Shown here: piece by piece, positions 17,918-34,938 of the stretch
Layout: each line of letters opens with the position of its first letter
How positions within the stretch are numbered: the first letter of the stretch is position 1
Source of the DNA: a virus
Lineage: Duplodnaviria; Caudoviricetes
Reading direction: 5' to 3' (one strand)
DNA length: 53,053 nucleotides
Virus record (IMG/VR): IMGVR_UViG_3300006919_000073
Span: 1-53,053 of that record
Notes under the pieces: model-generated
What the model saw: only the letters and a program-made list of their open reading frames with translations
The model's database searches: none
What the model was told of the DNA's origin: nothing
Made by a program: the position numbers and the translations under genes

Positions 17918-17946
17918 ACCCTTCTTACGTTATGTAAGATGAAAGG

Positions 17947-18207
17947 TTACGGCGCAGGGACATCAATCCTGATAGCGTACACTCCAGGTATATCTGTTTC
18001 TACTAAACGGTACATGTGCCCTTGGTAATCATAGTACTCTGTATTCAGTACCATTTCATGCTCAAAGTGGGCTACCGGAAAATGCCCGTCCCATACAAGA
18101 GGGATTATTAGATCGGCATTAAACTTCTCAGGATGTACATACACATTCTTTGGGGCCGTCGTACATCCTACAAATAACAGTGCTAAAAGCAATACTACAG
18201 TTTTCAT
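17947..18207 (-). CDS. putative lipoprotein
   Basis: MKTVVLLLALLFVG-C signal peptide II with lipobox, from ATG 18207. Confidence 0.65.
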   Translation of the reverse strand: MKTVVLLLALLFVGCTTAPKNVYVHPEKFNADLIIPLVWDGHFPVAHFEHEMVLNTEYYDYQGHMYRLVETDIPGVYAIRIDVPAP

Positions 18208-18270
18208 AGACGGCAATGTAGCAGTGCTGCAAAGTCTATCGAAGTATTTATCGTATAAGAACACTTATGT

Positions 18271-20025
18271 TCAGCGGAATATTGTTACATGCCCTTGCAA
18301 GTCCAGCGTCAGACCACTCAAGCCTTTTGCTTTAATTACCCATACGTATACGCCATCAGCAACATAGTAATTACGAGTTGGTCCTTGCCCGTACCATTCC
18401 ACTTCAGGATCAAATGCCTGCCATATCATATCACCCCAGCGGTTGTACACCTGTATATGCCAATCTAACCAGCAGCTCGGGTCAGCCATTGCAGCATAAA
18501 AGCTGTCGTTGATACCATCATTATTTGGTGAGAAGGCATTGGGCACAAAGACAGATGAACAGTCTTCTTCTAGCAGGCCTTGCTCATCGCAGGGCAGCCC
18601 GGTCTCACAGTCTACGAATTGGATTTCATATTCATACACTGTGTCTGTCTCGTAGATGTATTCATAGAGTACAATCTCCTGAATCAATGTATCTACAACC
18701 GTAGTGTACACGGTATCGACTTGATATATCTCTAGGGTATCCGTGACATAGACATACTCAATTTCTGTCTCAGTCAGAATCAATGTATCCAGCACGTTGA
18801 TGTACACTGTATCGTACACATCTACGTACACGGTATCATAGATGTACCACTCCCATGGCACGTACACCGTGTCAACTACGAAGACTTCTAACGTATCAAC
18901 TACCAGCACTTCTACCGTGTCTGCCGGCAGCTCTACAATCACCGTGTCAGGGTCTAGTGTGACAAACTCAACAATCGTGTCAGGAGGTAGTGTGACAATT
19001 ACCGTATCTGCTTCTACCGGACATTCCGGTTCTTCTGGTAGATAGACCGTCGTATTGTTATTGCCTGTAATGACCTCCCCCGGTATGCTATCTAAGCTCA
19101 GGTTGAAGAAGCCTCCGCCTCCATAACTAGGGAATTCAAAAGGCCCTCCCGTTAACGCTTGCCCTCCACCTGGAGGTATCCAATAGATGGGGTTATCATA
19201 CCCACTGTAGCAATCGATTTGATCCTGAAACCAGAAGTCGATACAGTAAGACCAAATAGTATCCGGACCATAGTTCCACACCACATAGTCTACAGTGTAA
19301 AATGCTTCATCACCTATGCACCCTACATTAAATTCAACATCATCGATTACCCCGTCAGTCCAATCTGACTGCGGCATGCAGTTGACTTGAACCCAGTTAT
19401 CCATGAAGTTCTGATCGTCATAAACTCCTGACCCCCAAAAGGTACCGTCCCCATTAACACCTACCTCAGCCCAGCCACCATCAGCCGCATACATCGTAGG
19501 GCCATAGCTAATCTGCCATATCACGGCTTGAATACCCAAGTCTTGCTCCAGCCAGAAGTCAAATACATCAGGCAACGTCGAGAACATGCTCCCACTATTA
19601 TTCTGATAGAAGTCGTCTAATGGGAACGTCACGGTATCTCCGGTATAGTACGGAGGCTCTAAGTCGTACTCTGCCCATACATCCAGGTTTGTCCAGTTAG
19701 TAGGACTCTCTGTAGTAGTGGCGGAGTATACCCAACCCGGGTGGTTACTGTTGTCAGGAATAGATAGCCCCCATGGGAAGTCCCAGCCTTGATTCATAGC
19801 ATTGCAGTCAGCATCGACTGCCTGAAAGCCAAACTGTAACTCTGCAATACCGGTAGGACCAGCACTGCCGCCACAGTTTTGTGTGTTGTTGAAAGCGACT
19901 GTAATCGTATTCGCATTTACGTCGAACTGCAGTATTTGCAGGTCGCATTGTGCTACGTTTTTATACATAGCAAAAACGCCTAGCCATATGAGGCTAAGCG
20001 TTTTAGGTAGATTGAAAGGTGCCAT
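18271..20025 (-). CDS. secreted acidic protein with T9SS type-B (gliding motility-associated, CHU_C) C-terminal domain
   Basis: N-terminal signal peptide; C-terminus VFVPNAFSPNNDGINDSF...VYNRWG...W.G...DGVYVW.I...GHVTIFR; central DT repeats. Confidence 0.88.
   Translation of the reverse strand: MAPFNLPKTLSLIWLGVFAMYKNVAQCDLQILQFDVNANTITVAFNNTQNCGGSAGPTGIAELQFGFQAVDADCNAMNQGWDFPWGLSIPDNSNHPGWVYSATTTESPTNWTNLDVWAEYDLEPPYYTGDTVTFPLDDFYQNNSGSMFSTLPDVFDFWLEQDLGIQAVIWQISYGPTMYAADGGWAEVGVNGDGTFWGSGVYDDQNFMDNWVQVNCMPQSDWTDGVIDDVEFNVGCIGDEAFYTVDYVVWNYGPDTIWSYCIDFWFQDQIDCYSGYDNPIYWIPPGGGQALTGGPFEFPSYGGGGFFNLSLDSIPGEVITGNNNTTVYLPEEPECPVEADTVIVTLPPDTIVEFVTLDPDTVIVELPADTVEVLVVDTLEVFVVDTVYVPWEWYIYDTVYVDVYDTVYINVLDTLILTETEIEYVYVTDTLEIYQVDTVYTTVVDTLIQEIVLYEYIYETDTVYEYEIQFVDCETGLPCDEQGLLEEDCSSVFVPNAFSPNNDGINDSFYAAMADPSCWLDWHIQVYNRWGDMIWQAFDPEVEWYGQGPTRNYYVADGVYVWVIKAKGLSGLTLDLQGHVTIFR
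18630..19012 (-). repeat. degenerate coding repeat [VI]xDT[VLI]x[VE], about 8-aa period
   Basis: ADTVIV, PDTIVE, PDTVIV, ADTVEV, VDTLEV, VDTVYV, YDTVYV, YDTVYI, LDTLIL, TDTLEI, VDTVYT, VDTLIQ, TDTVYE. Confidence 0.85.
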
Positions 20026-20028
20026 TGG

Positions 20029-23000
20029 TTAATTGTTTAGTACTCGGTCTAGATTCCGAATCTGCCGCTGTATCGCTGCACTATGTGGTATCAGTTTACC
20101 GCCATGGTGCAACATCTTACTCTTGCCGGCATAGACTCCGGTTTCAATAGTCGGCTCGCCCCATGCAGTATCCCAAGTCGCCTCAGTCAGTTTAGCCAAT
20201 TGATTCATTGTGTCCAGTGCCGCAATCTTACCGCCACCCACAAGCTTATCGAAAGCCAGCGGATTCATAAAGGCAGTCTGGTCATTATGCGCACGGTTCA
20301 TCACATTCATCAGATAGTTCAACGTGTACTTAGACAGTGTCTCATCATCATCCTCGTCATCCAAGAGAGCTTGGATAGCTTGAATCATAAAGTACAAGTA
20401 CATCATGTGACGGAAGTTCGCTGCACTCTTGCGCATGTTCTCCTGGTCCACTTGACTTACATCATCGCTAAACTGATGCTTACGTCCAAGTACTGGCACC
20501 ATCAGAGGCAGCAGCATCTTGTGCAGTGACTTGCGGTGTTCCATCAACGTCCACCAACGACCCTTCACATTACGATCTAAGTACGGATCGTAACGCTCCT
20601 TTTCCATACGCTGAGCAATAGCTTCTGGCAACCAGCTCTTGAACTGCATCAACAGTGGGCCATAGAAAGTCTTCTTGATAGCGATAGGGCTATTGGGGTC
20701 ATAGTTACCGTGGATACGCTTGTTAACCTGGTCAATCTTATTTACCAGCTGAGCGTGCTTTTCTTCTCCCGGTCGGTAGCCATCAATCTGAATGATGCCG
20801 TTCTCGTCCATCTGCTCCCACAGCGACTTGCCGTTGACCTTAGTCTCAAGCAGTACCGCCATAGTACCTGCCCCATACACAAAGTATTCCGAGCTGCGTT
20901 GAATCTCATACATGCGCAACTTCTTGATGCCCATAGTAGACGCGGCACTGATACCGGCTTCGCTAGCATTCTTAGCATACTGGCTTGGGTCAAATCGAAT
21001 CTCCGTAAAGTCCTTCAACACATCCAGCGTAATCATCATGCCTTGAATCTTCTTGGCAGTAGCCGTCTGTGTGTAGCCTTTGTTCAGAGTCAAGTTGTTC
21101 AGGCTCGAGTGCATCATAGTAGCTAACGCCTTACGAGCTGCCCGTGGTCCAAACTCTTGCTGACCGGCACCATACTGCTCCACAGCCAGTGTGCCATAGA
21201 GAAGGTTTGTTGCAGCAGCCGGTAAGTTCCAGCCCATACCCTTAGCCTGAATCCACTGCTGCATACCATACGCAGTCTTCGCAGCACTGAGCTTAGGAGT
21301 AGCAGCATCGATCTGCTGTTGGATTTGAGCACGCTCCTCATCAGTGCGAGCATCTCGCAACTTCTCCTCCAGCTTGGCAATCTTCTCTTTATCGTCAGCA
21401 GTCCACATACGACGTGGTGCATTCACTGTTACGTCCTTTATGGTAGTATGCCCATAGAACTGATTGACCATAGTATCTACCACACGCATAATACGTGTAC
21501 GGTCTTCTGCCGTACGTGAAGCCAGCGGTACACCCATCTTACTCAGGATCTGACGCCCAAAGCTATTCTGCTGAGTTATCTGCGCTTGACTCATCACACC
21601 GCGAGTCATACGTACAGTATCCTCAATCTTATTCTTGCTTTCGTACGTCGTTGCCATCATCGCGAACGCCAAGAACGTACGGTCCATATTGTACTCGTAG
21701 TCTTCCGACTTAAGCTTATTGGTAAACCATACCGGCAGCTCTTCACGCTTGGCTCCAGTCACAGGGTCGATCAGCTGCGATTGCAAGTCCTCCTCAGTCA
21801 CAGTCATAGCCCGCAGCATAGAGTCAGTGACCGCATCCTTGCTCAAGCCACTGAAGTCACCCTTCATCACGTCGTTAATCATAGAGCGCTTGATAGCTGG
21901 CAAGAACAATCCGCTTTGGATTTGACTCTGGTCTACCGCATTGCCCATCTTATGCATAGGCAGGATAGCCATCATCTCCTTCATCTGCTTACGGTACTCC
22001 TTGTAGTACGCCACAGCAGCAGCATCCTCTTGCATCTCAATGAAACGCTCATCGTGGTACTCCTTCTTCGGCATATTGAAGAGGTAGCTATTGCGTGCTC
22101 CCTTAGGTGCCCGCGTCTTACCGTCGATATACTTCTTGTGCAGCGAGGGGTCGTTCTGTGCTACCCACTCCTTCTTCAGCTTTTCACGCTCGGCTACATC
22201 AGTGACTTCGACATCAATGATATCGAACTCTGCATTACGAGCATCAACAAACTGCTGGAGCAATACCTCCTGACGGGTAATCATCTCTTCTGCGCCATAC
22301 TTACCGTATGTCTTCTCGAGAGACAACTGATAGCTCAGGTTATCCTTACGCACAACAGTATCGCCACTGTAGTCGAAGAGACGATCCACATCCATGCGAC
22401 CGGTATTGGCGTGTAACCACTTGTAGTATTCACCAGGCTTATTGTCCTTACCGGCACGAGCCTGATTGTGAGCTGCTTCCCACTTGCCTCCAACAATAGT
22501 CAGAATCAACGGCATCGGGTTACCATCCTTGTCCTTCATCACGAAGCCTTCAAACCCGTGCTTCTTGAAGTAAGCGCCCTCCTGCATAGCCTTGGTCTTA
22601 TCCATATAGCTCTTTGCACGATCGTTAAACGCCACCTGTTGCTGACGTACCGCCTCCTTCATAACACCGTCTAAGAAACTCAACTCGATACGACCCTGAC
22701 GAGACGCATCCATGAAGTAGCTCACCAGACCTCCGATATCATCAATCTTCTCGAAGCTATCACTCTTCACATACTTCTCTCCTGCAGTGCCACGGAACCG
22801 AGCCTTAGCCTGTGCACGTAAGATAGCAGTCGCCTTCTCGAAGTAGTCCTCTCGCAAAGTAGCTGCACGGGCCACGAGCTTGTTCATCTCATCGCGGATT
22901 GGACCACGCTTGTCAATGATGCCACGAGCATCTGCATAGAACTCAATAACACTCAGCGCATTCTGCAAGGCTGACTGAGCCAGTCGCACATCGCCCGTAG

Positions 23001-26000
23001 TGTTTGCACCGCGTACCACATTCTCTGCGTCGTCCAACTCACGATTCGCCATATCGACAATCATCTCTAACGACGCGCCCCCTTCACTATCATCACGTAG
23101 CACACTCAGTTCCCGCTCCTCCAAGCCAATGCGCTCATTCAATCGCTTCACCAAGTACTTGTCATTCTTGTACCGGCTCCGCATCTCCTTCAGCTCTCTA
23201 ATACGCTTACGCTTGTAGTCAATCAGTTTCGCGAGTGTTTGCGTGTCCAAGCTAAAGTCATCAATATCTGTCTCAAGCAAGTCGTCAATCAAGTCATCGC
23301 TAGCCACATCATTCTGGTCCATTGACAAGTCCAGTGTCTTGATTGTGACTCCACGTGCTTTGGCATTCTTCTGGATCAAGTCCATAGTGAGTGCCGCTGC
23401 TTCGTGCGCGTATGTACCGGTCTTTACTTGCACCCCTAAGCCTTCAAGAATCTCACCGATATACTTTACGATACGGTCGAGCCATGTCTCGTTTTGGCTC
23501 AGCTTGATTTGACTCAGCTGTTGTGCAAACTCTGGACGAGAAAGCAACTCGGCTACCATCTCTTTCGCGCTGGTAAAGCCGTAGTACTTTTTCATATTCT
23601 CTTTGTCCATAGCAAAGTCATATGCCTCGCTAGCTACCAAGTCAGCCCGCATTGCCATCAGTGGCAGCTCACCGCTCAATACCTGCTTGCGCACTTGAAT
23701 ACCACGCTTGAACTTATTGAGATCATCCAGGTTCAGGCCCATCGCATTCAACAGCTCTGGACTTGTAGTCAACTGGGTATATACCTTCTCGACTTTAGCA
23801 ATGGCCTCCTTTACCTCTGCCGGCACACCTTTACGCTGTGCTGCATTCATAGACATTACGTCTGAGGTGTAGGCGTGTACCATTTCGTGAGCCAAGACAC
23901 GCACCAAGCGTGATGTATTGCCCGACTCTACCAGCTGCTTCTGCAACTTCAGTGTATGCGTACCACGATTGTATCCACCGACATTATCCATGTCTGCTAC
24001 AACAACCTTTACCTGACGCTCTTTCGGCAACTTAGACTCAAAGGCCAGCAACTGACGCAAAAGACGATTCTTCAGTACACCGTCACCGATCTCCTGAGTC
24101 ACAAACTCAGACACCGACATCTCACGAGATTGACCTTGAGCTGCAGATTCCATAGCTGCTTGCTCAGCAGGAGACATTCCCTGAGGCACATCGGCCGCAG
24201 GTGCTGCAGGCATATCCATACTCTGCGCTGCCATCTCTGCTGGACTCATCCCTTGAGGAACATCACTTGAATCAGTAACACCCGTATGTTGCGGACGGCC
24301 CGGCTCTACGTCATTGGTAGAGTCCATACCATTGACACTGCTTGCCTTATTAGACTTGTTAATGTCCAAGGTAAACTTGTGGTCCTCTTGAATTTCCTGA
24401 CCCGGTGTGAACTCCGTAGCGAAGTAACTGCCGCCAGCAGGGTAGGGACCACTAAACGCAAAGAACGAATCGCGTGTACCATTTGACACCTCCTGGACTT
24501 TGTACAAGCCTTTACTCGTGCGGAACCAGCCCATGTAACGCATCTCGCGAGTTACCATGCCGTCTTTCACGCGCTTCTTCTTGAAGTCCAGATGCTCTTT
24601 CATAGCTTCCTTATTCAAGTACTGCATATGCTCCGACATGTGCAGCATGATTTGATCGTGCGCTGCCTCATCAGCACGCCAGCCCGCATAAATCTCGTGA
24701 GTAAATCCAAGAGCTTCCTTGATACCTAACTCCTGCAACAACTCCGCAGGCAAGTACTTACCGTATCCCTTGGATGCCAGCTGCCGTCCCTGCAAGAGGT
24801 GATACACAACTAAGTCTTCAGCTAGTTGACGTACCGCTGCATCCTTTGATGTAGCTAACGCCAAGAATGCCGCGTGCATTTCAATTGGGCTGACATTTAC
24901 CTGACGATCACCTTGGAAAGACACACGTGGGTATCCCTTTGCCGGATTCACTTCAGCAATCAAGTGCTTGATAAACAGGTTATTACGCACTTCTGCTTTG
25001 GCTGCCTTTGCACTAATGAGCCTAGCAGCCATGTTATTCTCACTGGTAAAGAACTCCTGGCGCAATTCAGCTGCAGAACGTCCGCCTACCTTCTCTGCCC
25101 ACTGTGCATAGAGATAACCCTTCGCCATATTGAGGTAGTCTTGAGCAAACTCTGGCGACAGGTACATATCTCCCGTACTGTTTTCATCTTCCGAGTTCAT
25201 CAGCTCTACCGCCTTACCCATCATCTCCTGATACAGCGGAGTACGGTATACTGACTCACCCGGCAAGTCCAGCACCTCTTGAATCATAGCATTCAGGTCA
25301 CTGTAAACCTGACCAGATACCGTCATGCTCAACAGTTGCGACTCCAAGTTGTCGACGGTCTCCTTCAAGCCTTTAGCATCAGCTCCTTGCGCTGTCTGCC
25401 GCAATGCTTGTGCCGCCACCTCACGCTCCATATCAATCTCTGAGCGAGTCTTAGGCATCTTAGTGTCAAACTTCATCGCCTTAGCAAACTTGCCTAACGC
25501 TCTGCCTACTTGATCCAAGTTATTGAGAGCCATGTGAAGTTGGAAGGTCATAGCCGCCTTTTCCACTTCCGGCATCTGCTCTCCTTGCACCATTGCGAGC
25601 AAGTCTGTTTTGTTCAGACGCGGCAACCTACCACTACTCAAGGCTTCAGACACTCTCTGCGCATCTGCAAATCCTGCTTCTCTCAGGGTATTCATCGCCT
25701 GATCAAGCATAGTCTGATATTGAGATGACTGCCGTGCGCCTGTCAACTGACGTAATGCACTCTGATCCGCTGTAGCTGCCTGTACTAACGGAGTAGCCAT
25801 GAAGATACCAATGGTCTCCATGTTGTATCCCATGTTCGTCAGTGCAGACCAGTAGCCCCAAGTCTGGCTATTGATGTTCAGCTTAGCCAAAAGCTGATTG
25901 TTCTCGTTGTCTACCGCGTGGTTCAACAGCCGGCTAAACTGCTCTTGACGTGTGATTTTCGTTGGCTGCGTTTCGTAGTCCAACAAGAATGTATCGTCAT

Positions 26001-29000
26001 GAATATCAGTAACACCAAAGTAGCGAGCCTTATGAGAATCTTTCATCTCGTTGTCCCTATCAACTTGGATATTGACATGCAAGAGAACAGGCCCAAACTT
26101 CGTATCTCTCAAGTATTGCATAGCTCCAACACCAGCAGACATCTGCTCAATCTGTGCGTGCAATACATTTTGGCTAGCGAATACCCCAATTGCATCCTTA
26201 GCACTACGCGCTACGTCAGCCTTCAAGTCGTTGTACTCATACGCCATAGGCATACCGGTAGCTTCACGCATCAAGCCAAGCTGCTGACCCAACTCTTCAC
26301 TATAGCCGTCAGTAACAGGGCTATGGCGCTCGAGGAGTGCCGTAGCATCTTGACTACGAAGACTTGCGTGGTACACATCAATCTGACGGTTACGCGCCGA
26401 CTTACGACGTTCCTCTGCCGTACCGACCTCAGAACCTCCCCGTGCTACTTGCAAGGCTCCATCCACAAGAGATGTCTCATACAAGAAGCCGAACATCTTA
26501 TCGATATCGTAGTCCTGACCGATCTGTCCAACCAACTCCTCCGGTACAATCAGCGTATCTCCATATGACTTAGGCAAGAAGCCTACAATCTCAAAGCTCG
26601 CTGAAGACGCTTTCTTCTGACCCGGGATACGATATGCCAACACCTGGAAGATCTCCTGTGGAAGGCTATCCATATCAATTGTACCGTCCTCATTCTTAAA
26701 CTGCTCCAGCTTACCGGCATACTTCCATGGCATGATAATCTGATTGGGCTGCTCATATTGAGCAACCTTCAGCTTCTTACCATTGAACAGCTTTGACTTG
26801 CCCTTCTTTACCCAAACGATATCGCTTGCATCCATCCCATCAAGGGTCTGGTACTGCATGCCTGTTTCGGGTCGGATAGGACCACTGAAGCCGCTAATCT
26901 TTGGCTCAATCAGTTCCTTACGCAAGATGCTAATGAGCAGCTGCTCGATGCGTTGCGCACTTGGACCTTGACTCAGAGGCGTAAAGAAGGTGCCCGTCTT
27001 TTCGTCGTACTGCAGGTGAGCCAACTCATTGACATCGTAGTTACGGTCAATAGCCTCTTCTACAATACGTGCAGCCATACGCTTGGCATACTCCGGCCCC
27101 TGTACCAAGTTGCCGTTTTCTACACGCATATCGTACTTACTGGCAAAGATGTCCATACGAGCGCGTTGCTCTTGAGATCTTGCCTCCATGTACTCATAGT
27201 ACAAGTCCCGTCCGCTTACCGTCTCGCCGTCTAACTCAAACTCAACATCCTCATTTGCCATGTTCGCAAGAATCAACTTGGCTACCTGCGAACCATGCAC
27301 CTTTTCGGTCGACTTCGACACTGGTACTTCCTGCTGAATGCGAACGCTTTCACGCTTGTATTGAATCACCTGATCCTTAAGACCGTCTTGGATTTCGACT
27401 TTACCCTCAGCATCGTGCACATCCACCATATCAGCGAACGGATTGCCTACTTTCAACGCCGAAGTATATGCCGCCCGCTGGATGTTATTCGCCTCCATAA
27501 ACTGGCGCAACTCATCCAGGGACTGGTTCTTAGTCAACCCAGGTACCAATGGGAACGAGGCACTCTTGATATACAGCAGGTGCCCATCCTTACGCTCTAC
27601 CGTAACCGGCTTCATAGGCTGGAACCATCCCCGCTCTTGGTTATTCAGAGGCACACCCTCATTAACCTTACGAAGAATGCCCTCGAACTCTTTACGCCCA
27701 ATCTTACCCTGCGCATACAGGATAGACAAGTGCTCTTCTGCGGTAGTGTACTCAGCAGCATCAGCAGTATCGTAACCACGATATGCATCTAACTGCTCCT
27801 CTGTCATGCCCAACTCCTTGAGGTAGCTCAGGTGTGCGGACTCAGAAATCTTACGCTCTGGCATGACCAGACTACGGACGGTCTTGTTGTTAACGTCCTT
27901 GACTTCTTCAAGTACCGGCTTACCATTCTTCAATACAGGCTTACCGTCTTCATCGTAGGTAGCACGCATGGCGGTATACGACACTTCTGGAATGACGTTA
28001 CCCGGCGCAATCAAAGCAGCAAAACGCTTACCCATGTTGGTTGCCGTCTGCTCTGCGCTACCCTTAGCAAAGGCTCCTGGGTCACCCAACAATGCAGTAG
28101 TAACGTTCGTGTTGAAGTGCATAGCTTCAATGACATACTTCGCCACAAAGCCCATGAATGCGTGTTGCTTATTCATGTCATTATCGCGGAAGTCGCTAAG
28201 CTCCATACCTACATGCCGACGCACATAGTCGAACTCTTTCTTTGAAGGGTCAAAGAAGTTGAATCGAGAGATAGTATTTTCATCGCCCAGCTCGTACAGC
28301 ATGCCTTCAGCATCCTCCATAGCCTTACGGTAGGACTTATCTAACTGAGCTTCGTAAATGTCCCGAGCTGCTCTGTGAATCTCCGCATCGGTACGGTCTT
28401 GCATACCGTTGAGTGCAGGCATCAAAACAAAACGATCGTTACGCTGCTGCTTGGCATCCAAAGTTGCGAAGACCTCGCCTTTCTTCTTTGCCTGTACCGC
28501 CCGAATACGTGCCAGCTCTAAATCAATGCTTGCACGGATGGTAGTATCGTATGCTTCTTGCACATTAAAGAAGTCGCTTACACGATACTCAGCAGGCAGA
28601 CGCTGTTCACCAGCTGGTTCAACAGTCAAGCCTTTCATCTTAAGGGTCAGCGATGGCACCTGAATCAGAGGCATTGTATGCTTGTCTGCCAGTGTGGGCA
28701 TCATATGCCGGCTATACATCTGGCGACCCCCATCGATGTAAGTATTGTTATTGCCGAAGTATGCCAATCGTGCAAAGAGACGATCGCCTGGCTCCATCTT
28801 ATGGAAGTCACGCACATCGCCAAAGCCTGCTAGCATCTTGATTCCATCCACATAACCAAACTTGACATACGGACGATTCTTACGACGCCGCATGCTCATG
28901 AGCAATGGGTTGTTACGCAAGGTCCAGTCGGCCTCCATGTCTACAGCAAAGACGGCATTACCATTTGCGTCAGTTACCAGCTGCCCCTTGTCATCAAGCA

Positions 29001-32000
29001 CAGGTTCCATCAAATCTTGGAACATCTTCTGTGCATGCTTGGGAGCAGTGTATTGCCACCGCAGTTTACCGCTACCGTCCTTACTACTATTCTGAATAAG
29101 GTTATCCTGGTAGTTGGACAAGACCGCAATGAACCCCGCGATAGCAGGACGTGCACTTTCCCTGTCTTGCCCTGGATCAGTAATCGCTAACGTCTTGTCT
29201 TCCGATTCCAAGGCCTCTTGCATACCCATACGGAATGCTCCAAACAAGCTCTTGGCAGACTTCGGATTCACCAAGTCTTTCTCAATACCGCGCATAACCT
29301 CCACACCCAAACCAGAAGTCATCCGGTTGCGGCTTGTCAAAGCCTGTGGAGGGATGTTCATACCCAACTCAACAGCAAACAATCGGCTCAACTCTTGAGC
29401 AGCCTTTGCAGGATCGCTATTGTCTGTAGCAATCTTCTCCATTGCCGTGATGAACGACTTCAACTTTACATCATTCACCAATACAGTTCCATCCGGCTGT
29501 CGGGTATAGAAGCCTTTGATGATGAACTGGCTCTCCAGCTCTTTCATCACAAACTCCGTCATATTGGTATCGTTACTGCTGAACTGGTAGACGTTTGCTG
29601 CCCGTCCTGGATTCGGCCCAACTGATGCCTCGCCCTTGTCAACCTTCAGGCTCAAGAACTCTGCAATGTTCTTTGCCATGCCGACTACAAACTGGTTGCG
29701 CATCATATCGATACGGTCCAGCTCATTCTCCTTAAACGCGCTGTTTTCCACAGACGCGTCATCCAGAATGTTTAGAACCACCTGGAAGTATGGGTAGGTG
29801 CCCACATTCTCCTCCAGACGCTTCTTCATTGCCGGCCAGTTGTACTTAGCCCCAGCCATAGCTTGATTGAGGTGTCCAATCAAAGTGCGCTGGTTCACAA
29901 ACTTGCGCCCTAACGCTCCTACCGTAGTGGCATTGCTATGCACATGCTGCACAGTCATCAATGCCAACTTTAGTTCAAAGCGTAACGCTGCCTGTGGATC
30001 TACACCAAATGCAAAGTTGTCATCGAATGCAGCCATAGGATTGGCATCACGCTCAATATCCTCTGCAGTCTTGGCTTGACCTTCTACCACCTCATCGCGA
30101 TCCTGCTGCAATTCACGCACAGCATCTGCCAGTGTACCAGCTTCAAGCTTTACAATACCACGTGACTCTCGCAACAACTCCAAGAAGCCCAAGTCCATCA
30201 AGCGGTCGAAGCGCTTGTCCTCCAGCATCTTGTCAAACGTCTCGATGAAACGCTTTGCCTGCTCATACTTAGGATGCTCAGGCTGCTGGACTACCAGTTT
30301 AGCTGCCGCATATCCGGGCAACTCTAAGATGTCATTACGCACCTGACGCTTAAGGTCATCTGCCTTAATGCCTTCAATACGACCCGTGGTCTTACTATGC
30401 CGAAGCATACGTGTCGCCAGTCGACCGGTGATGAAGTTCAGTGCATCTTGTGTAACCTTTTGCGTCAAACCTTCAACAGAATACAGCTTACCTGCACGTT
30501 GCATAGGGCTGTCCTCATCAAAGTTCTCAGGCAACAAATCCAAATCCGCGAACTGCTCAAATTGCAAGAGCTGCTCTGGCGTAAGCTCTACCGGCTTGGC
30601 TTCAGTATCAGTACGATCAGTTGGCACTTCCACATCGCCCAACTCGATAGTCAGCCGCTCTACTGGATTACCGTAAGTCTTACCATCAATGACCAAAGGC
30701 ACACGTTCGTCAAACGACATGTGGTTCAGGTAGTATTGCTTAACGCTTACCGGACGATCGACTTGCACAATGCCCGTTTCACCGTCAACCTTAAAGCCTT
30801 CAAAGACTTGGCTCACATTGTCACGGTGCTCAAACGAAGTATTGCGACGCATAGCAGCAATGCGCTTGACTGCCTGAGCCTGAAAGCTCTTATTTGACAG
30901 CTTGTGCGAGCGTAAGAAACTACGCATCTGCTTGCCCGTATTCTTAGACTCAAACGTTGCAACATCATCATAGATACGCAGGCCTGGATCAACAGCACTA
31001 GGGTAGTAAATGAGAGCTGGACGCTTACCATAGGTTTTGTGCTCAGTAGAACCCACTTCACTATGTGTGCCGTTCTCGAGCATCAGGTACTGCTTAAGAA
31101 CACTGTGGAAGCTATCGACGAGACGCTTGTTATCGATGACGCCTGCTGCATTCCGGATATCCCATCCGAATGCCTCCTCCATGTTCTTCACAGTTGCATT
31201 CGCTGCATCCAGTGTCAGACCCATAGATTCATTCACCTTACCAGTGACCACCAGGGCCACAGCTCTTTCAGCAGCCAGCAATCCAAACGCCAACTCGTCG
31301 CCAACCGCACGCATATTAGCGGGAACGTAGAACAGGTCTCCACTCGCATTATCCTTGACAATTGCATATGGCTTGCTCAGAATATTCCGACCGCTATTGG
31401 TCAAGGGTTCTGACGCCATTGTCATATCCGGACGCGTGAAGAACTGGAACTCCTCTTGCTGACCGCGAGTGCTCCAAGCACCAATGTCAACTAAGTTCTC
31501 TTCTGTCAATACATCCTTAGCATCGCGAGGCTGTTCAATGCGTGTTCCCCCATACTCTGCCCGCGTAACAACCTTTACGCGAGCTGTACGTGGCTCAGCA
31601 AGTGATAAGAACAAGTCGTTTGTATCTGAGGTGCGCGGCTCAGTACGGAAGATGTTGCCACGGACACTGTAGTGAATTACGTCCGTCAAAACACCATCGA
31701 CCTCCTCTCGCCCTCGAGTCAGAGTGACCTCTTCTCCTACACGAACCCCATTTTGCGTGATGTCCTGTGATGCCTCTGGGTAGCGTGGATTCAGCTCGCC
31801 CGTCATACGCGGGTCGTCTACCACCACCTTCAAAGTGTACTCCTTTTTCTCTACCGCAGGATTTTCTGGCTCACTGTTGTCTACAGGCTGGGCACTCTGC
31901 TGCTCCTCATCGGCTACCTGTGCAGGTGACTTGCCTTGAGGTTCAGTAGGCACTACCGCTACAGGCTTCTTTTGAGATGGATCTACATCCTCTGCAACCT

Positions 32001-34938
32001 CCTGCTGCTCCTCAACCTCAGTCTCAGTATTTGCAGCTTCAGCAGGCGACACTCCCTCTGGCACCTCAGTAGTCTCAGGAGCTGGCTGGCTCAAGTCTTC
32101 AAACATGGCAGCACTTGGTGGCTGAAAACCCGGAGGTCCGTCCATACCATCAGGTGCTTCTTCGGCTTGCTGCTGTGCTTCAGCGGGTGACATACCCCGT
32201 GGCGTGTCTTGGTCTTCCCCTAAGTCCGCCGCTTCAGCACGACGTTCTTCTTCCATTGCCTCTTCCTCCTCATCCTCGGCACGCTTCACAACAGAACGCA
32301 CACTGTTCTCCATACGTGCGATAAACCGCTCGTAGCCTCCAGGCTTAGTCAAGTCGTTGAACGCCTCAATCATTTCCTGACGATCACGAGCAACTTCACG
32401 CAAATCCTCGCGCAGTTCCTCAATCTCAGTCATATCGACCTCAGTAACTCCACGCTTGCCCATAGCGGCAAGAGCACGGTTGTAGTTCACCAAGTCATCC
32501 AGCTGCTGATTGAAGCCTTCTAAATCGTAGTTATATGCGCCCGCCTTACCCTTAGCCCGGTATCCTTTGCGCAGTGCCTCTTTTTTCTCGAGCAGCTCTT
32601 TCAGCTTTGCATTACGCTCCTCGCTCTGTTCGGCAGACTCTACCTCATCAATCTCGTCCTCAATAGCTGTGAGCTTATCAATCTCAGCTTGGGTCATGCT
32701 AAGCTCTAACTCAAGCTGCGTACCATCTAAAATGGCATCACCATTCATGCCTTTGATGCGCTCTGATAATGATTCCGCAATGGCTTTCTCACGAGCATCA
32801 CGGTCTTTGGTATTGTACACCAAGTTGGCAATAGCATTGAGAGCGTCATGGTTTTCGCCACGGTAGATCTCTCTAGCCTTACGGTACGCATCCCGCACCT
32901 CATTCATACGCTTAGAGTACTGCTCGTATGCCTGGGTTTTACGCGAACGCAACTCCTCATCGGTCATATCCTGTGCAGCAGACCCTAACATCTCACGGTA
33001 GTCCTCAACAGACATACTATCAAGAAGCTCTTTGGCTTCAATCAAGCTGTCTTCAAATCGACCGGTAAGAATCTTACTGCTCGCATGAGAGAAGATAGAG
33101 TTGGCTTCATTGTCCTTGAGACCTTTGAAGTCATTCTGGTTCGCCATAATATCTGCCTGACGTACCAACCCTCGCTGCGTAACAGCATTATTCAACTCAG
33201 CAGCCAAGTGATTACCTACGTCACCTTCTTGCTCGTGCAGCTTGATGATGCGATCCATCACAGCATCACGCTCAGCATTGTCTTTCTTCACCTGAGTAAA
33301 GCCGCCGACAAATGCAGGACGTACCTTCTTACCTGTTTCAGGGTCGACTTCGCTGTAAGCATTGGCAATCATGATGTTAGGGATACCAAAGGCTCCCAAC
33401 AGCATACCAATACCTACCTCTTTCAAACCTTCAGCCGTACCATAGCTACCCTTAATACCCTCAATAAAACTACTGACAAGGTTTTCGGTATCCTTATGGT
33501 TACGGGGGTCATACCGGTGTGAGATATAGTCCTCAAAGCCGCGACTAATCACACCCTGTCCACCCTCTTCAACTAAGCCTTCATACAGTGCAGTACCTGC
33601 TACACCTGTACCTGGTGTCAAGCGACGCAAGTTTCGACCTGTCCGTGTGGCGCGGCTAGCATCTACGAGACGAGGTAACTGTCCCTCTTTGATGCCCATA
33701 CGCTTTGCCATCTGCTGACGTGCCTTAGCAGTCAGCTTAGTCGTATCTACAAACTTCGTCTGACGCAAACCGTTACGTAAGCCACTGCCAAAAAGCTTCG
33801 GGAACATCAGCATGTTCGAGGCTCCTACCAGTGCCATATTCGCCATGAATGCAGTATTACCGTATCCAGTAATCTCATCACGGAACGCTTCCTCCATCTC
33901 TGGCGTGTAAGAACCTTCGCCATTCTCCAACTCATACTCACGCTTATGATCTTCGCCTGCCGCGTTCATCATGTGGCGAGCTTCCATACCAGCCTCCATA
34001 CCAGCACCGGTAAGCAACTGACGACTCATACGTCCAGCAGCTGTCAACCCTGCTTTACGCGCTCCAGCTGCACCGCTTGCACGAAGTCCTGCCTCTGCCG
34101 CTTCACGAGTAGCCGAAGATGCCAACTGCGCTTCTGCTCGAACCACATCATCCAGCAGTTGTGTGCCAAGAACCCGCTTACCGCCAGTAACTGCTTTCTT
34201 CAACAGACGTGTACCGCGTGCAACGATACCTGCTGTAGCTGCAGCCTGAGCAGGTGCTGCACCTCCCAGTGTCAATGCAGTAGCCGCCGACAGTCCAAGC
34301 TCAGTAAGAATTGCACCAGCCACAAACGATACACCGCCAAGAACGTCATCGAATACAAAGTTGGTAACCTGCTGCATCCCGCTTTGATTACCACCACGCT
34401 TAATGTCAAAGTACTTATCGTACTCTTCTTGCGCATTATCTAAAGCGTTAGAAACCGCGTTGTCGTAAATCTTGTGGAACTCCCCATTGACTACCATACT
34501 AGGCAAGCCATAGAGTAACGTCGCAAAGCCTTGTGCAACATTGATACCGGTGTCCCCTACAAACTGGAACATACCGTTGCGAATCTTTTCTAAGTTGCCC
34601 TGCGCAGCTTGTGAACGGTTGTACACATCCTCAATGCCGGTATTGGTAAAGCCGTCATCTAACCCACTTACACGGGTAGACAGACCGCCCAACCACTTCT
34701 GATCTTTGAACTGGTCAAAGTCAATGTCTTGTTGCGCATCAAATGCATTATTGATTCCAAAGACACCGTCCTTAGATTCATACAGCATATCACTGAACTG
34801 ACCTAAGTCTAATTCAGAGCTTTTCTGTTCCTCTACGGGTTCCGGTTGACCCTGCAATGCATCACGAATCTCGTCTTCAGTGATGTTAGTATGCAGGCCA
34901 AGATTTACGAGGTTGTTTTTATCAGCCATTGATGCCAA
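20029..34938 (-). CDS. giant virion protein containing a crAss-like DNA-dependent RNA polymerase and a zincin-like domain
   Basis: 4969 aa; YRIPGQ and catalytic GQDYDIDK (DxDxD, 26497-26514), as in the phi14:2 gp66-type RNAP; LAHEMVH HExxH at 23875-23889. Confidence 0.88.
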   Translation of the reverse strand: MASMADKNNLVNLGLHTNITEDEIRDALQGQPEPVEEQKSSELDLGQFSDMLYESKDGVFGINNAFDAQQDIDFDQFKDQKWLGGLSTRVSGLDDGFTNTGIEDVYNRSQAAQGNLEKIRNGMFQFVGDTGINVAQGFATLLYGLPSMVVNGEFHKIYDNAVSNALDNAQEEYDKYFDIKRGGNQSGMQQVTNFVFDDVLGGVSFVAGAILTELGLSAATALTLGGAAPAQAAATAGIVARGTRLLKKAVTGGKRVLGTQLLDDVVRAEAQLASSATREAAEAGLRASGAAGARKAGLTAAGRMSRQLLTGAGMEAGMEARHMMNAAGEDHKREYELENGEGSYTPEMEEAFRDEITGYGNTAFMANMALVGASNMLMFPKLFGSGLRNGLRQTKFVDTTKLTAKARQQMAKRMGIKEGQLPRLVDASRATRTGRNLRRLTPGTGVAGTALYEGLVEEGGQGVISRGFEDYISHRYDPRNHKDTENLVSSFIEGIKGSYGTAEGLKEVGIGMLLGAFGIPNIMIANAYSEVDPETGKKVRPAFVGGFTQVKKDNAERDAVMDRIIKLHEQEGDVGNHLAAELNNAVTQRGLVRQADIMANQNDFKGLKDNEANSIFSHASSKILTGRFEDSLIEAKELLDSMSVEDYREMLGSAAQDMTDEELRSRKTQAYEQYSKRMNEVRDAYRKAREIYRGENHDALNAIANLVYNTKDRDAREKAIAESLSERIKGMNGDAILDGTQLELELSMTQAEIDKLTAIEDEIDEVESAEQSEERNAKLKELLEKKEALRKGYRAKGKAGAYNYDLEGFNQQLDDLVNYNRALAAMGKRGVTEVDMTEIEELREDLREVARDRQEMIEAFNDLTKPGGYERFIARMENSVRSVVKRAEDEEEEAMEEERRAEAADLGEDQDTPRGMSPAEAQQQAEEAPDGMDGPPGFQPPSAAMFEDLSQPAPETTEVPEGVSPAEAANTETEVEEQQEVAEDVDPSQKKPVAVVPTEPQGKSPAQVADEEQQSAQPVDNSEPENPAVEKKEYTLKVVVDDPRMTGELNPRYPEASQDITQNGVRVGEEVTLTRGREEVDGVLTDVIHYSVRGNIFRTEPRTSDTNDLFLSLAEPRTARVKVVTRAEYGGTRIEQPRDAKDVLTEENLVDIGAWSTRGQQEEFQFFTRPDMTMASEPLTNSGRNILSKPYAIVKDNASGDLFYVPANMRAVGDELAFGLLAAERAVALVVTGKVNESMGLTLDAANATVKNMEEAFGWDIRNAAGVIDNKRLVDSFHSVLKQYLMLENGTHSEVGSTEHKTYGKRPALIYYPSAVDPGLRIYDDVATFESKNTGKQMRSFLRSHKLSNKSFQAQAVKRIAAMRRNTSFEHRDNVSQVFEGFKVDGETGIVQVDRPVSVKQYYLNHMSFDERVPLVIDGKTYGNPVERLTIELGDVEVPTDRTDTEAKPVELTPEQLLQFEQFADLDLLPENFDEDSPMQRAGKLYSVEGLTQKVTQDALNFITGRLATRMLRHSKTTGRIEGIKADDLKRQVRNDILELPGYAAAKLVVQQPEHPKYEQAKRFIETFDKMLEDKRFDRLMDLGFLELLRESRGIVKLEAGTLADAVRELQQDRDEVVEGQAKTAEDIERDANPMAAFDDNFAFGVDPQAALRFELKLALMTVQHVHSNATTVGALGRKFVNQRTLIGHLNQAMAGAKYNWPAMKKRLEENVGTYPYFQVVLNILDDASVENSAFKENELDRIDMMRNQFVVGMAKNIAEFLSLKVDKGEASVGPNPGRAANVYQFSSNDTNMTEFVMKELESQFIIKGFYTRQPDGTVLVNDVKLKSFITAMEKIATDNSDPAKAAQELSRLFAVELGMNIPPQALTSRNRMTSGLGVEVMRGIEKDLVNPKSAKSLFGAFRMGMQEALESEDKTLAITDPGQDRESARPAIAGFIAVLSNYQDNLIQNSSKDGSGKLRWQYTAPKHAQKMFQDLMEPVLDDKGQLVTDANGNAVFAVDMEADWTLRNNPLLMSMRRRKNRPYVKFGYVDGIKMLAGFGDVRDFHKMEPGDRLFARLAYFGNNNTYIDGGRQMYSRHMMPTLADKHTMPLIQVPSLTLKMKGLTVEPAGEQRLPAEYRVSDFFNVQEAYDTTIRASIDLELARIRAVQAKKKGEVFATLDAKQQRNDRFVLMPALNGMQDRTDAEIHRAARDIYEAQLDKSYRKAMEDAEGMLYELGDENTISRFNFFDPSKKEFDYVRRHVGMELSDFRDNDMNKQHAFMGFVAKYVIEAMHFNTNVTTALLGDPGAFAKGSAEQTATNMGKRFAALIAPGNVIPEVSYTAMRATYDEDGKPVLKNGKPVLEEVKDVNNKTVRSLVMPERKISESAHLSYLKELGMTEEQLDAYRGYDTADAAEYTTAEEHLSILYAQGKIGRKEFEGILRKVNEGVPLNNQERGWFQPMKPVTVERKDGHLLYIKSASFPLVPGLTKNQSLDELRQFMEANNIQRAAYTSALKVGNPFADMVDVHDAEGKVEIQDGLKDQVIQYKRESVRIQQEVPVSKSTEKVHGSQVAKLILANMANEDVEFELDGETVSGRDLYYEYMEARSQEQRARMDIFASKYDMRVENGNLVQGPEYAKRMAARIVEEAIDRNYDVNELAHLQYDEKTGTFFTPLSQGPSAQRIEQLLISILRKELIEPKISGFSGPIRPETGMQYQTLDGMDASDIVWVKKGKSKLFNGKKLKVAQYEQPNQIIMPWKYAGKLEQFKNEDGTIDMDSLPQEIFQVLAYRIPGQKKASSASFEIVGFLPKSYGDTLIVPEELVGQIGQDYDIDKMFGFLYETSLVDGALQVARGGSEVGTAEERRKSARNRQIDVYHASLRSQDATALLERHSPVTDGYSEELGQQLGLMREATGMPMAYEYNDLKADVARSAKDAIGVFASQNVLHAQIEQMSAGVGAMQYLRDTKFGPVLLHVNIQVDRDNEMKDSHKARYFGVTDIHDDTFLLDYETQPTKITRQEQFSRLLNHAVDNENNQLLAKLNINSQTWGYWSALTNMGYNMETIGIFMATPLVQAATADQSALRQLTGARQSSQYQTMLDQAMNTLREAGFADAQRVSEALSSGRLPRLNKTDLLAMVQGEQMPEVEKAAMTFQLHMALNNLDQVGRALGKFAKAMKFDTKMPKTRSEIDMEREVAAQALRQTAQGADAKGLKETVDNLESQLLSMTVSGQVYSDLNAMIQEVLDLPGESVYRTPLYQEMMGKAVELMNSEDENSTGDMYLSPEFAQDYLNMAKGYLYAQWAEKVGGRSAAELRQEFFTSENNMAARLISAKAAKAEVRNNLFIKHLIAEVNPAKGYPRVSFQGDRQVNVSPIEMHAAFLALATSKDAAVRQLAEDLVVYHLLQGRQLASKGYGKYLPAELLQELGIKEALGFTHEIYAGWRADEAAHDQIMLHMSEHMQYLNKEAMKEHLDFKKKRVKDGMVTREMRYMGWFRTSKGLYKVQEVSNGTRDSFFAFSGPYPAGGSYFATEFTPGQEIQEDHKFTLDINKSNKASSVNGMDSTNDVEPGRPQHTGVTDSSDVPQGMSPAEMAAQSMDMPAAPAADVPQGMSPAEQAAMESAAQGQSREMSVSEFVTQEIGDGVLKNRLLRQLLAFESKLPKERQVKVVVADMDNVGGYNRGTHTLKLQKQLVESGNTSRLVRVLAHEMVHAYTSDVMSMNAAQRKGVPAEVKEAIAKVEKVYTQLTTSPELLNAMGLNLDDLNKFKRGIQVRKQVLSGELPLMAMRADLVASEAYDFAMDKENMKKYYGFTSAKEMVAELLSRPEFAQQLSQIKLSQNETWLDRIVKYIGEILEGLGVQVKTGTYAHEAAALTMDLIQKNAKARGVTIKTLDLSMDQNDVASDDLIDDLLETDIDDFSLDTQTLAKLIDYKRKRIRELKEMRSRYKNDKYLVKRLNERIGLEERELSVLRDDSEGGASLEMIVDMANRELDDAENVVRGANTTGDVRLAQSALQNALSVIEFYADARGIIDKRGPIRDEMNKLVARAATLREDYFEKATAILRAQAKARFRGTAGEKYVKSDSFEKIDDIGGLVSYFMDASRQGRIELSFLDGVMKEAVRQQQVAFNDRAKSYMDKTKAMQEGAYFKKHGFEGFVMKDKDGNPMPLILTIVGGKWEAAHNQARAGKDNKPGEYYKWLHANTGRMDVDRLFDYSGDTVVRKDNLSYQLSLEKTYGKYGAEEMITRQEVLLQQFVDARNAEFDIIDVEVTDVAEREKLKKEWVAQNDPSLHKKYIDGKTRAPKGARNSYLFNMPKKEYHDERFIEMQEDAAAVAYYKEYRKQMKEMMAILPMHKMGNAVDQSQIQSGLFLPAIKRSMINDVMKGDFSGLSKDAVTDSMLRAMTVTEEDLQSQLIDPVTGAKREELPVWFTNKLKSEDYEYNMDRTFLAFAMMATTYESKNKIEDTVRMTRGVMSQAQITQQNSFGRQILSKMGVPLASRTAEDRTRIMRVVDTMVNQFYGHTTIKDVTVNAPRRMWTADDKEKIAKLEEKLRDARTDEERAQIQQQIDAATPKLSAAKTAYGMQQWIQAKGMGWNLPAAATNLLYGTLAVEQYGAGQQEFGPRAARKALATMMHSSLNNLTLNKGYTQTATAKKIQGMMITLDVLKDFTEIRFDPSQYAKNASEAGISAASTMGIKKLRMYEIQRSSEYFVYGAGTMAVLLETKVNGKSLWEQMDENGIIQIDGYRPGEEKHAQLVNKIDQVNKRIHGNYDPNSPIAIKKTFYGPLLMQFKSWLPEAIAQRMEKERYDPYLDRNVKGRWWTLMEHRKSLHKMLLPLMVPVLGRKHQFSDDVSQVDQENMRKSAANFRHMMYLYFMIQAIQALLDDEDDDETLSKYTLNYLMNVMNRAHNDQTAFMNPLAFDKLVGGGKIAALDTMNQLAKLTEATWDTAWGEPTIETGVYAGKSKMLHHGGKLIPHSAAIQRQIRNLDRVLNN

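Follow-up and report, generated by a model that had tools for sequence, protein, structure and literature searches.

A predicted type-B cargo of the host type IX secretion system encoded beside the virion RNA polymerase gene of a crAss-like phage

The question raised by the locus described here is why a phage should encode a protein that ends in what looks like a sorting tag of its host's own secretion machinery. The locus lies in virus record IMGVR_UViG_3300006919_000073, which was analyzed in its entirety (53,053 bases, completeness estimate 66%; hereafter referred to as the window). An open reading frame (ORF) on the minus strand (18271..20025, ATG start) codes for a protein of 584 amino acids (aa), hereafter referred to as the cargo, and directly follows a giant virion RNA polymerase gene. 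A sequence-only reading of this DNA had taken the ORF for a phage gene encoding a cargo of a Bacteroidota host's type IX secretion system (T9SS). We compared the protein, its gene setting and its relatives with known families, folds and genomes. The comparisons make it probable that the cargo is a T9SS substrate made by the phage, glycosylated and stalked, which ends up on the surface of the infected Bacteroidota cell.

The tag was considered first as a type-B T9SS C-terminal domain (CTD), as had been proposed. The Pfam family CHU_C (PF13585) matched residues 493-567 with an E-value of 1.1e-14 and 54.7 bits, well above its gathering score of 27, and the proposal was upheld. No other Pfam family was found in the cargo at E < 0.01, hence no match to a type-A tail model. 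The sole NCBIfam match was TIGR04131 ('T9SS type B sorting domain', E 3.6e-7); here the expectation held for the match and failed for the score, which at 30.2 bits is below the curated cut-off of 35. The same model matched 87/87 family members at E <= 1e-3, at best with 2.3e-14. In an alignment with 14 type-B CTDs from cellular Bacteroidota genomes the cargo reaches the last residue, R584, with 12 invariant columns, which include the PNxF[ST]PNxDGxND block, the Gly of the RWG turn, WxG and the terminal R. The predicted fold is a beta-sandwich matching solved T9SS CTDs in a VIA search: 8glk_D (NucA CTD; Z 8.8, root-mean-square deviation (rmsd) 2.0, 73 residues), PorU (Z 8.4), PorZ (7.9) and the mirolase CTD (7.4). 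These solved domains are presumably not of type B. At least 539 cellular relatives of the CTD are 28-44% identical to it, those of Flavobacteriales and Saprospiraceae foremost. The assignment to type B, predicted from family models, alignment and fold, is sound, with the NCBIfam cut-off as a blemish.

At the other end of the protein there is a predicted Sec signal peptide, also present in the earlier reading and expected of a type-B cargo. Its recognition relied on a heuristic that combines hydropathy with the junction pattern. Six parts of the cargo were delimited from an alignment of 87 relatives and from composition counts (Table 1), and in this alignment the leader has a basic N-end, a hydrophobic core (best 10-residue Kyte-Doolittle window 2.26 in the cargo) and a conserved junction, with A, G or S at position -1 (46, 27 and 13 members) and Q at +1 in 86 of the 87. 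According to the Q-rule described for Bacteroidetes, cleavage exposes a Gln that glutaminyl cyclase converts to pyroglutamate (PMC5837995, PMC10653852). The A25|Q26 junction of the cargo would fit both this rule and the needs of signal peptidase I.

Between the leader and the tag, the DT-repeat stalk noticed earlier was found again as 13 DT units at a spacing of 8-16 residues, with V, L or I after all 13 D[ST] pairs. Bacteroidota O-glycosylation follows the motif D-(S/T)-(A/I/L/V/M/T) (PMC8550257, PMC12871550). According to PMC12871550, this motif is glycosylated only in non-cytoplasmic proteins, its sites are generally nearly fully occupied, engineered motifs become glycosylated, and glycosylation works across species. 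The 134 residues of the stalk hold 13 such sequons, compared to 1.3 +/- 1.0 in shuffled sequences (maximum 5 in 2000 shuffles), and the mature cargo holds 16, compared to 2.6 in shuffles. Sequons number 27.4 per 1000 aa in the cargo, compared to 3.2 across the window's 32 other ORFs; a pair of type-B cargoes from cells have about 6.5. Across the family, 1013 of 1054 D[ST]x triplets in the stalk region conform to the motif, and the number of sequons per protein ranges from 1 to 20 with a median of 12. After the counts were set against shuffles, a reading of the stalk as a plain spacer or fibre was dropped in favour of glycosylation. The stalk is thus predicted to be an array of O-glycosylation sites of the kind used by Bacteroidota hosts.

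The N-terminal region that follows the leader had been described as an acidic domain rich in Trp and Asp, a description that stands: residues 26-215, hereafter the head, contain 25 D+E, 10 W and no K+R. Over residues 26-492 there are 81 Asp+Glu and again no Lys or Arg, and the mature cargo, of about 63 kDa, has a calculated isoelectric point near 4. Within the family no part is better conserved than the head (54-77% identity, compared to 40-76% for the CTD). Seven cysteines of the cargo are conserved in 83-87 of 87 members, and two of them, C473 and C479 in the linker before the CTD, are present in all 87. Folded alone with 92 sequences (AF2), the head gave a pLDDT of 83.4 and a pTM of 0.85. 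The model had no significant structural neighbour (best Foldseek E 0.11; best VIA Z 5.5, to generic immunoglobulin (Ig)-like sandwiches), and at the sequence level the head matched neither Pfam nor NCBIfam; a single PDB match at E 0.087 was disregarded. In VIA searches, residues 216-337 resemble 2l0d (Z 10.2, rmsd 2.8 over 107 residues) and CARDB 3idu (Z 9.2); this CARDB-like domain is missing from shorter family members. Clusters of CARDB type in the ESM Atlas (scores 0.79-0.84) lay under the meaningful level, and CARDB is supported by fold search for residues 216-337 only.

The genomic surroundings bear out that the gene belongs to a phage, as had been supposed. The plus strand of the virus record carries a replication module (family A DNA polymerase, helicases and primase). 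A minus-strand block encodes crAss tail ring proteins 1 and 2 (CrAss_Ring_1, E 8.4e-49; CrAss_Ring_2, E 6.9e-34), together with a structural protein of 1448 aa and an 822-aa protein that bears a lysozyme-like domain. In the gene adjoining that of the cargo, identified beforehand as a virion RNA polymerase gene at a distance of 3 nucleotides (nt), residues 2356-2819 of the 4969-aa product matched PDB chain 6VR4_A ('DNA-dependent RNA polymerase') with an E-value of 2.4e-19, and both identity and distance were confirmed. We take this chain to be gp66 of Cellulophaga phage phi14:2, a crAss-like virion polymerase. Tail ring proteins are thus combined with a giant virion RNA polymerase, as in Crassvirales. 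Because ring, RNA polymerase and replication genes are present and ring protein 1 is less than 31% identical to that of every deposited crAss phage, the window is a distant crAss-like phage rather than a bacterial contig.

Related loci present the cargo gene in three settings. It directly follows the virion polymerase gene, as in the window, in L107, L109 (same contig as L008), L110, L115/L116 and L123, with polymerase C-termini 41-59% identical. In L001, L004 and L005 it stands alone on the plus strand among minus-strand genes; terminase and portal lie to one side of it, and a holin-like gene lies beyond the four minus-strand ORFs that come after the cargo. In about 15 related loci it directly precedes the terminase gene, which it overlaps by 4 nt in L023; these terminases share 41-49% identity with their counterparts in phages of Flavobacterium, Cellulophaga, Tenacibaculum and Maribacter.

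Such positions raise the alternative that the cargo is a part of the virion, a fibre or decoration protein in which Ig-like domains and a C-terminal sandwich have been reused for binding and the repeats form a fibre shaft. The gene ends the block of structural and cargo genes right after the virion RNA polymerase gene, or stands just before the terminase, Ig-like domains are present, and the repeats are beta-prone, hydrophobic and unmodelled. In BFVD, matches ranked 1-7 (E <= 2.9e-7) were other tagged or unnamed proteins of uncultured phages, followed by weak matches (E 3.3e-4 to 1.3e-3) to the tail fibre of Klebsiella phage KPN4, to a tip attachment protein J and to a Siphoviridae baseplate protein. 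Against a virion protein speak the cleavable Q-rule leader that all but one of 87 members retain, a series of sites of a kind glycosylated solely outside the cytoplasm, the conserved cysteines, a bona fide tag for secretion at the very C-terminus and the lack of a match to any PHROG family, structural ones included. The Q-rule leader, the sequon array and the T9SS tag are three independent Bacteroidota-specific marks of an extracytoplasmic protein. Virions of tailed phages assemble in the cytoplasm, and the combination of this fact with the three marks is the main argument that makes a virion part very improbable.

The host suggested by these features is the one named at the outset. A member of Bacteroidota would fit the Q-rule leader, the array of O-glycosylation sequons and the nearest cellular CTDs, which come from Flavobacteriales and Saprospiraceae, and the earlier pointer to this phylum was supported.

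A word-indexed search yielded at least 352 homologues of the cargo at E <= 1e-3 in contigs of aquatic phages, some of these up to 110 kb long; a family of this size rules out chance as the origin of its features, and PF13585 was carried by 120/120 homologues among the matches listed. At least 85 viral loci were fetched for the family. With a profile of the head alone, 1.84 billion representative proteins gave 23 clusters only, and six of the seven distant full-length ones had a CHU_C end as well. A scan of 185,579 species genomes with a head pattern produced 104 pattern matches, none of which was confirmed. A hidden Markov model of the head, run in six frames against 401 Flavobacteriales genomes, found one match, covering the first 136 of 190 positions. 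The head therefore appears almost restricted to phages. A tblastn search of 50,697 deposited phage records returned three matches, to the CTD only and none in a cultured phage; UniProt-derived viral models do include proteins of uncultured phages annotated as 'gliding motility-associated C-terminal domain'. Nearly identical DNA was present in sequencing runs labelled freshwater metagenome and marine plankton metagenome, among them a 5,251-nt marine plankton contig that covers 17500-20404 with 27 differences. Since both kinds of runs are represented, we call the phage aquatic and not marine.

The single cellular match is an ORF in a Flavobacteriales genome (L167:18488-19930, plus strand; G100:C47). 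Over its first ~140 residues, which comprise the leader and a portion of the head, it shares 46% identity with the cargo, after which it switches abruptly to an alpha/beta hydrolase resembling PAF-acetylhydrolase. Its neighbours are chromosomal (UvrB, phosphoglucomutase and a type-A-tagged M4/M36 peptidase). This ORF is a genuine fusion with a phage-derived part or else an artefact of chimeric assembly, and it may hint at the host.

The fusion bears on another explanation, that the cargo is a secreted enzyme or soluble binding protein released from the cell, where it might act for instance on capsule or slime, freeing progeny or feeding the infected cell. Besides the hydrolase fusion, this is suggested by a head with no assigned fold and with invariant or near-invariant E62, D71, H95, E187 and D204, and by the published phage T9SS cargoes with type-A tags, which are hydrolases (Bellas 2020, PMC7468147). 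We nevertheless find it improbable. The head has no sequence match in Pfam, NCBIfam or PDB and its core is at best an Ig-like sandwich, type-B tags are linked to retention on PorP-like proteins, the plan of a stalk plus a head is that of adhesins, and the cellular fusion includes 136 of 190 head positions only and may be chimeric.

The way in which the head is distributed among phages suggests what is selected in the cargo. A near relative, G004 (76.9 kb, 96% complete), is 86% identical to the window in PolA, 84% in ring protein 1 and 70-90% in most replication genes. Its cargo shares with that of the window only the leader (13/19 residues) and residues 243-584 (47% identity), and has a different, short N-terminal part. 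Likewise, L008/L109 have just the stalk and CTD in common with the window (63%), behind another head. Conversely, heads 62-74% identical to that of the window occur in G001-G003, of which G002 and G003 share with the window just three small ORFs at E < 1e-5 and G001 a PolA 42% identical and a polymerase-like stretch. Because a close relative has a different head while distant phages keep that of the window, the head is a module that phages exchange on a common chassis, and it behaves, as judged from these comparisons, as a selected, exchangeable one.

Some further variants of the family were noted. In L115/L116 (2023-3288), L114 and L129 the head is replaced by small Cys-rich units, GCTDPxAxNYN...DDGxC, a further head type with no Pfam family. 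A marine plankton contig (run X9) agrees with the gene at its two ends, skips 18530-19773 and has unlike sequence in between; it is possibly a co-occurring variant with another passenger, a weak case given that one side is 22 letters long. A narrow PNNDGIN pattern scan of viral contigs added 59 loci with type-B CTDs. Among 36 distinct complete viral type-B ORFs, 28 have a leader with an [AGS]|Q junction and 21 a Cys 1-2 residues past the Q; in 20 representatives CHU_C scored over its cut-off each time, and in 19 no other Pfam family did. The shortest viral ORFs, of 111-134 aa (L161:1887-2219; L162/L163:2854-3255), contain little beyond a Q-rule leader and a type-B CTD and may be plugs or remnants.

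Type-B cargoes are delivered to PorP/SprF-like proteins, and the earlier reading stated that such a partner is needed and that none is recognisable in the window. The latter was confirmed: PF11751 (PorP_SprF) was not found in the window in six frames at E <= 1, nor in the records of five related phages, of which four have a completeness of 90% or more. As a control, PF11751 occurs in 8-15 copies in each of three cellular genomes with similar CTDs (3/3). In one of these, a type-B CTD gene lies just upstream of 12 of the 15 shuttle genes, and the other three are orphans. The two near cellular CTD bearers whose loci were examined, L028 (the top match) and L037, are orphans as well, each followed by an MFS transporter gene. 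The stated need for a partner has to be softened to a need that another locus can serve. In F. johnsoniae an adjacent PorP/SprF-like gene is found for nine of 12 type-B cargoes, common and not obligatory, and the remaining three are orphans that share one unlinked shuttle, Fjoh_1677 (Paillat 2025, PMC12618676). Since orphans can share an unlinked shuttle, the absence of a phage shuttle is no obstacle. With PF11751 in none of six phage records, the cargo would fit the orphan type-B class and rely on a shuttle of the host. The proposal that it is a T9SS cargo is hence supported, as a prediction, by the type-B tag, the lack of a shuttle of its own, the alignment with cellular CTDs and the fold match.

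Reliance on host shuttles also admits a different explanation, in which the passenger is of minor importance and the cargo jams the system by occupying PorP/SprF-like shuttles or the translocon, so that SprB-like adhesins are displaced and gliding is stopped or receptors are stripped. Type-B cargo stably binds its shuttle and, once on the cell surface, remains attached to PorP-like proteins (Gorasia 2022, PMC9143113); there is a coupling between SprF and the gliding track (Liu 2025, PMC12635249); and the resistance of Flavobacterium to phages maps to genes for gliding and the T9SS (10.1101/2020.10.02.323337, PMC9804748). The minimal viral forms, in which the leader is almost directly joined to the CTD (L161, 111 aa; L162, 134 aa), are what a plug might look like. 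A plug, however, would need neither the head, which is the most conserved part of the cargo and moves as a module, nor the glycosylated stalk, which is kept at variable length. Jamming as the principal role is therefore unlikely, about as much so as a released enzyme.

For the cargo as a surface protein we propose the following route, the in vivo steps of which (export, glycosylation, translocation and retention) are inferred from sequence features. The protein would be exported by Sec and cut by signal peptidase I between A25 and Q26, and the new N-terminal Gln would be cyclised by the glutaminyl cyclase of the host. In the periplasm, the general O-glycosylation system of the host would attach the host glycan to the stalk at its 13 D-T-[VIL] sites (the protein as a whole has 16), and the conserved cysteines would form disulfides. 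The type-B CTD would then direct passage through the T9SS translocon to a PorP/SprF-like shuttle of the host, as with orphan cargoes. Left uncleaved, the CTD would hold the protein on the outer membrane, with the glycosylated stalk projecting the CARDB-like domain and the acidic, aromatic-rich head.

As to function, we favour a non-enzymatic binding head that would alter what the infected cell surface presents. An adhesin or a masking protein is suggested because a conserved, exchangeable head without recognisable enzyme domain is joined to a stalk of variable length and a tag of the retention type. Masking of a T9SS-dependent receptor, the phage's own, or displacement of host adhesins is the more plausible of the specific roles, although we hold it only tentatively; it is favoured by the mapping of Flavobacterium phage resistance to gliding and T9SS genes. 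Receptor masking would give superinfection exclusion and reduce the loss of progeny on debris. A role as an adhesin, by which the infected cell would be attached to particles or neighbouring hosts, is possible and somewhat doubtful.

Several points weigh against the route and functions proposed. The TIGR04131 score is below its cut-off. Shuttle specificity is strict for some pairs and five motifs are insufficient for recognition (Paillat 2025, PMC12618676), and the phage CTD, at 28-44% identity to cellular ones, may find no shuttle that accepts it. Modelling of the stalk gave low confidence (AF2 pLDDT ~30), and its hydrophobic, beta-prone repeats could equally form a fibre. The gene lies at the end of the structural block in the window and directly before terminase elsewhere, and virion genes sit at such places too. 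With its conserved His, Glu and Asp and no assigned fold, the head may also be an enzyme. Finally, a lytic phage with a late-looking gene is an odd fit for superinfection exclusion.

A broader scenario can be drawn, which we consider unlikely in its full form. Phages of aquatic Bacteroidota would own a shared toolkit of interchangeable heads on one chassis (leader, glycosylated stalk and type-B tag) with which to re-dress the cell. Cloaked in host glycan and held on SprF-like shuttles, the protein might ride the gliding track as SprB does. The infected cell might then serve as a carrier that sticks to, or is steered to, fresh hosts or particles, or as a moving decoy for competing phages. Exchange of heads would track surface types of hosts, by analogy with the exchange of tail fibres.

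Known systems resemble the cargo in part. The F. johnsoniae orphans Fjoh_1123, Fjoh_1720 as well as Fjoh_4934, served by Fjoh_1677 (PMC12618676), likewise have a Sec leader and a type-B CTD with no adjacent shuttle gene; the cargo differs in being phage-encoded, with its presumed shuttle in another genome, and in having an almost phage-only passenger. With SprB and SprF (PMC9143113, PMC12635249) it shares the type-B CTD, the expected retention on a PorP-like barrel and the plan of a stalk plus a binding part, and it differs from SprB in its size of 584 aa, in the absence of SprB repeats in the Pfam scan and in the absence of a shuttle gene. The 'Cryophage' cargo (Bellas 2020, PMC7468147) is also a phage protein with a T9SS sorting domain, variable between variants and proposed to hijack host secretion. 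There, type-A tags are attached to recognisable enzymes and to a PA14 protein, whereas here a type-B tag is combined with a glycosylation-site stalk, no enzyme domain and a nearly phage-only head. The gut crAss-BACON cluster 2 phages (de Jonge 2019, PMC6949934) have T9SS-tagged proteins near structural genes of the head module; those are gut lineages with BACON repeats, and the present one is an aquatic phage with a type-B tag and no BACON domain.

Phage T5 encodes Llp, a surface lipoprotein responsible for superinfection exclusion, which masks the receptor in the envelope. The conjectural function of the cargo would resemble it in receptor masking, and a small lipoprotein gene lies next to that of the cargo; the export route (T9SS) and the size differ.

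The idea of a phage T9SS cargo is already published for type-A tags, in 2020, when the tagged 'Cryophage' enzymes were termed a unique case (Bellas et al. 2020, PMC7468147). A full-text search that covered few subscription journals and no supplements found no publication on type-B cargoes encoded by phages, nor any on phages exploiting the O-glycosylation motif of their hosts. What appears new here, as far as sequence comparison goes, is a large head family that is nearly confined to phages, together with direct evidence that phages, close as well as distant ones, exchange their heads.

In Bacteroidota, gliding, adhesion and the breakdown of polymers are driven by surface proteins that depend on the T9SS, and these proteins are tied to the phage susceptibility of Flavobacterium. 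If the proposed role of the cargo is true, infected cells of particle-degraders that abound in aquatic habitats would differ from uninfected ones in adhesion, motility or phage sensitivity, a concrete case of a phage reprogramming the behaviour of the infected cell. With its leader, glycosylated stalk and type-B tag, the modular family further provides a natural chassis on which proteins could be displayed at the surface of flavobacteria, and three Bacteroidota-specific marks in one gene make a strong marker of host phylum for uncultured phages.

Table 1. Parts of the cargo gene and the genes on either side of it (positions in the window)
Feature	Positions	Strand	Description
crAss-type virion RNA polymerase gene	20029..34938	-	4969 aa; stop 3 nt before cargo start; 6VR4_A match
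Predicted Sec signal peptide, residues 1-25	19951..20025	-	Basic N-end, hydrophobic core; predicted cleavage A25|Q26
Head domain, residues 26-215	19381..19950	-	Acidic, Trp/Tyr-rich, no Lys/Arg, invariant QCDL start
Optional CARDB-like Ig sandwich, residues 216-337	19015..19380	-	VIA fold match
Stalk, residues 338-471	18613..19014	-	13 units of ~8 residues, each opening D-T-[V/I/L]
Acidic Cys-bearing linker, residues 472-492	18550..18612	-	Motif DCxTGxPC
Type-B T9SS CTD, residues 493-584, and stop codon	18271..18549	-	PF13585, TIGR04131, fold
Small lipoprotein gene	17947..18207	-	86 aa, lipobox L-F-V-G-C; downstream of cargo, same strand
Small ORF, 52 aa	17759-17917	-	Between lipoprotein gene and 78-aa ORF; no PHROG family
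Small ORF, 78 aa	17526-17762	-	Last of operon; no PHROG family

The transcription units of the region are inferred from gene spacing. A scan of 17300-20400 for sigma-70 promoters and terminators gave counts not over those in shuffles, with a consensus that is unsuited to Bacteroidota, and the Bacteroidota -7 motif, TAnnTTTG, was not found upstream of the cargo gene in the window or in 16 relatives. In one metatranscriptome run, two 151-nt contigs fall within the cargo gene and another five within the polymerase gene, in its 3' part; DNA carry-over is possible in such libraries, and these contigs are not taken as a sign of expression.

Downstream of the cargo gene, the 86-aa lipoprotein matched no PHROG or Pfam family. 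A homologue, 35% identical, also directly follows the cargo gene in L110, and in L117 and L123 the cargo gene is followed by homologues of the 78-aa ORF, 71-73% identical. As fixed partners of the cargo, the lipoprotein and the small downstream ORFs were rejected, since they had no homologue in 26 related loci and occurred just sporadically in crAss-like relatives. The lipoprotein may modify the envelope as a second product of this kind, for instance as an exclusion factor.

A lipoprotein gene at this place suggests yet another explanation, that the cargo takes part in lysis and is targeted to the outer membrane to help break it. The gene order in L110 agrees with that of the window in this respect, and in L001 and L004 a holin-like gene is located beyond four minus-strand ORFs after the cargo. 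In the window, on the other hand, the holin-like gene (48662-49111) is 29 kb away and a lysozyme-like domain resides in the 822-aa ORF (37488-39956), the lipoprotein is not conserved in the 26 related loci, and we know of no analogue of a 63-kDa glycosylated stalked protein among spanins. Of the explanations considered, a lysis function is the one we credit least, and it is highly improbable.

Other features of the genome were noted in passing. The holin-like ORF, on the minus strand, matches phrog_3427 (E 2.4e-17) and adjoins ring protein 2, and the lysozyme/GH19-like domain lies within a minus-strand ORF of the block upstream of the polymerase gene; lysis functions are thus scattered. The 52-aa ORF (17759-17917) contains a dockerin/EF-hand-like calcium loop, D-x-N-x-D-G-x-I-x-x-x-D-L-L, and its stop codon runs into the start codon that follows (ATGA). 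Between the window and G004, identity of the virion RNA polymerase is no more than 37%, though other genes are 70-90% identical, which indicates far faster evolution than that of the backbone; its residues 3642-3691 include a weak SprT-like zinc-protease motif (21 bits, under the cut-off). The replication module includes an amidoligase-like ORF (11481-13446, plus strand) and an ORF for a glutamine amidotransferase/gamma-glutamyl cyclotransferase (15677-16558, plus strand), with a histidine-kinase-type ATPase ORF farther on; these may form a set for modification of nucleotides or DNA. A phrog_1501 protein, whose function is not assigned in that family, is encoded in the window at 49241-49753 on the minus strand, 29 kb from the cargo gene. 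In 60-kb phages its homologues, 52-61% identical to the window copy, are located beside the cargo gene or ~2 kb from it (L004:7465-7935; L023:5433-5921).

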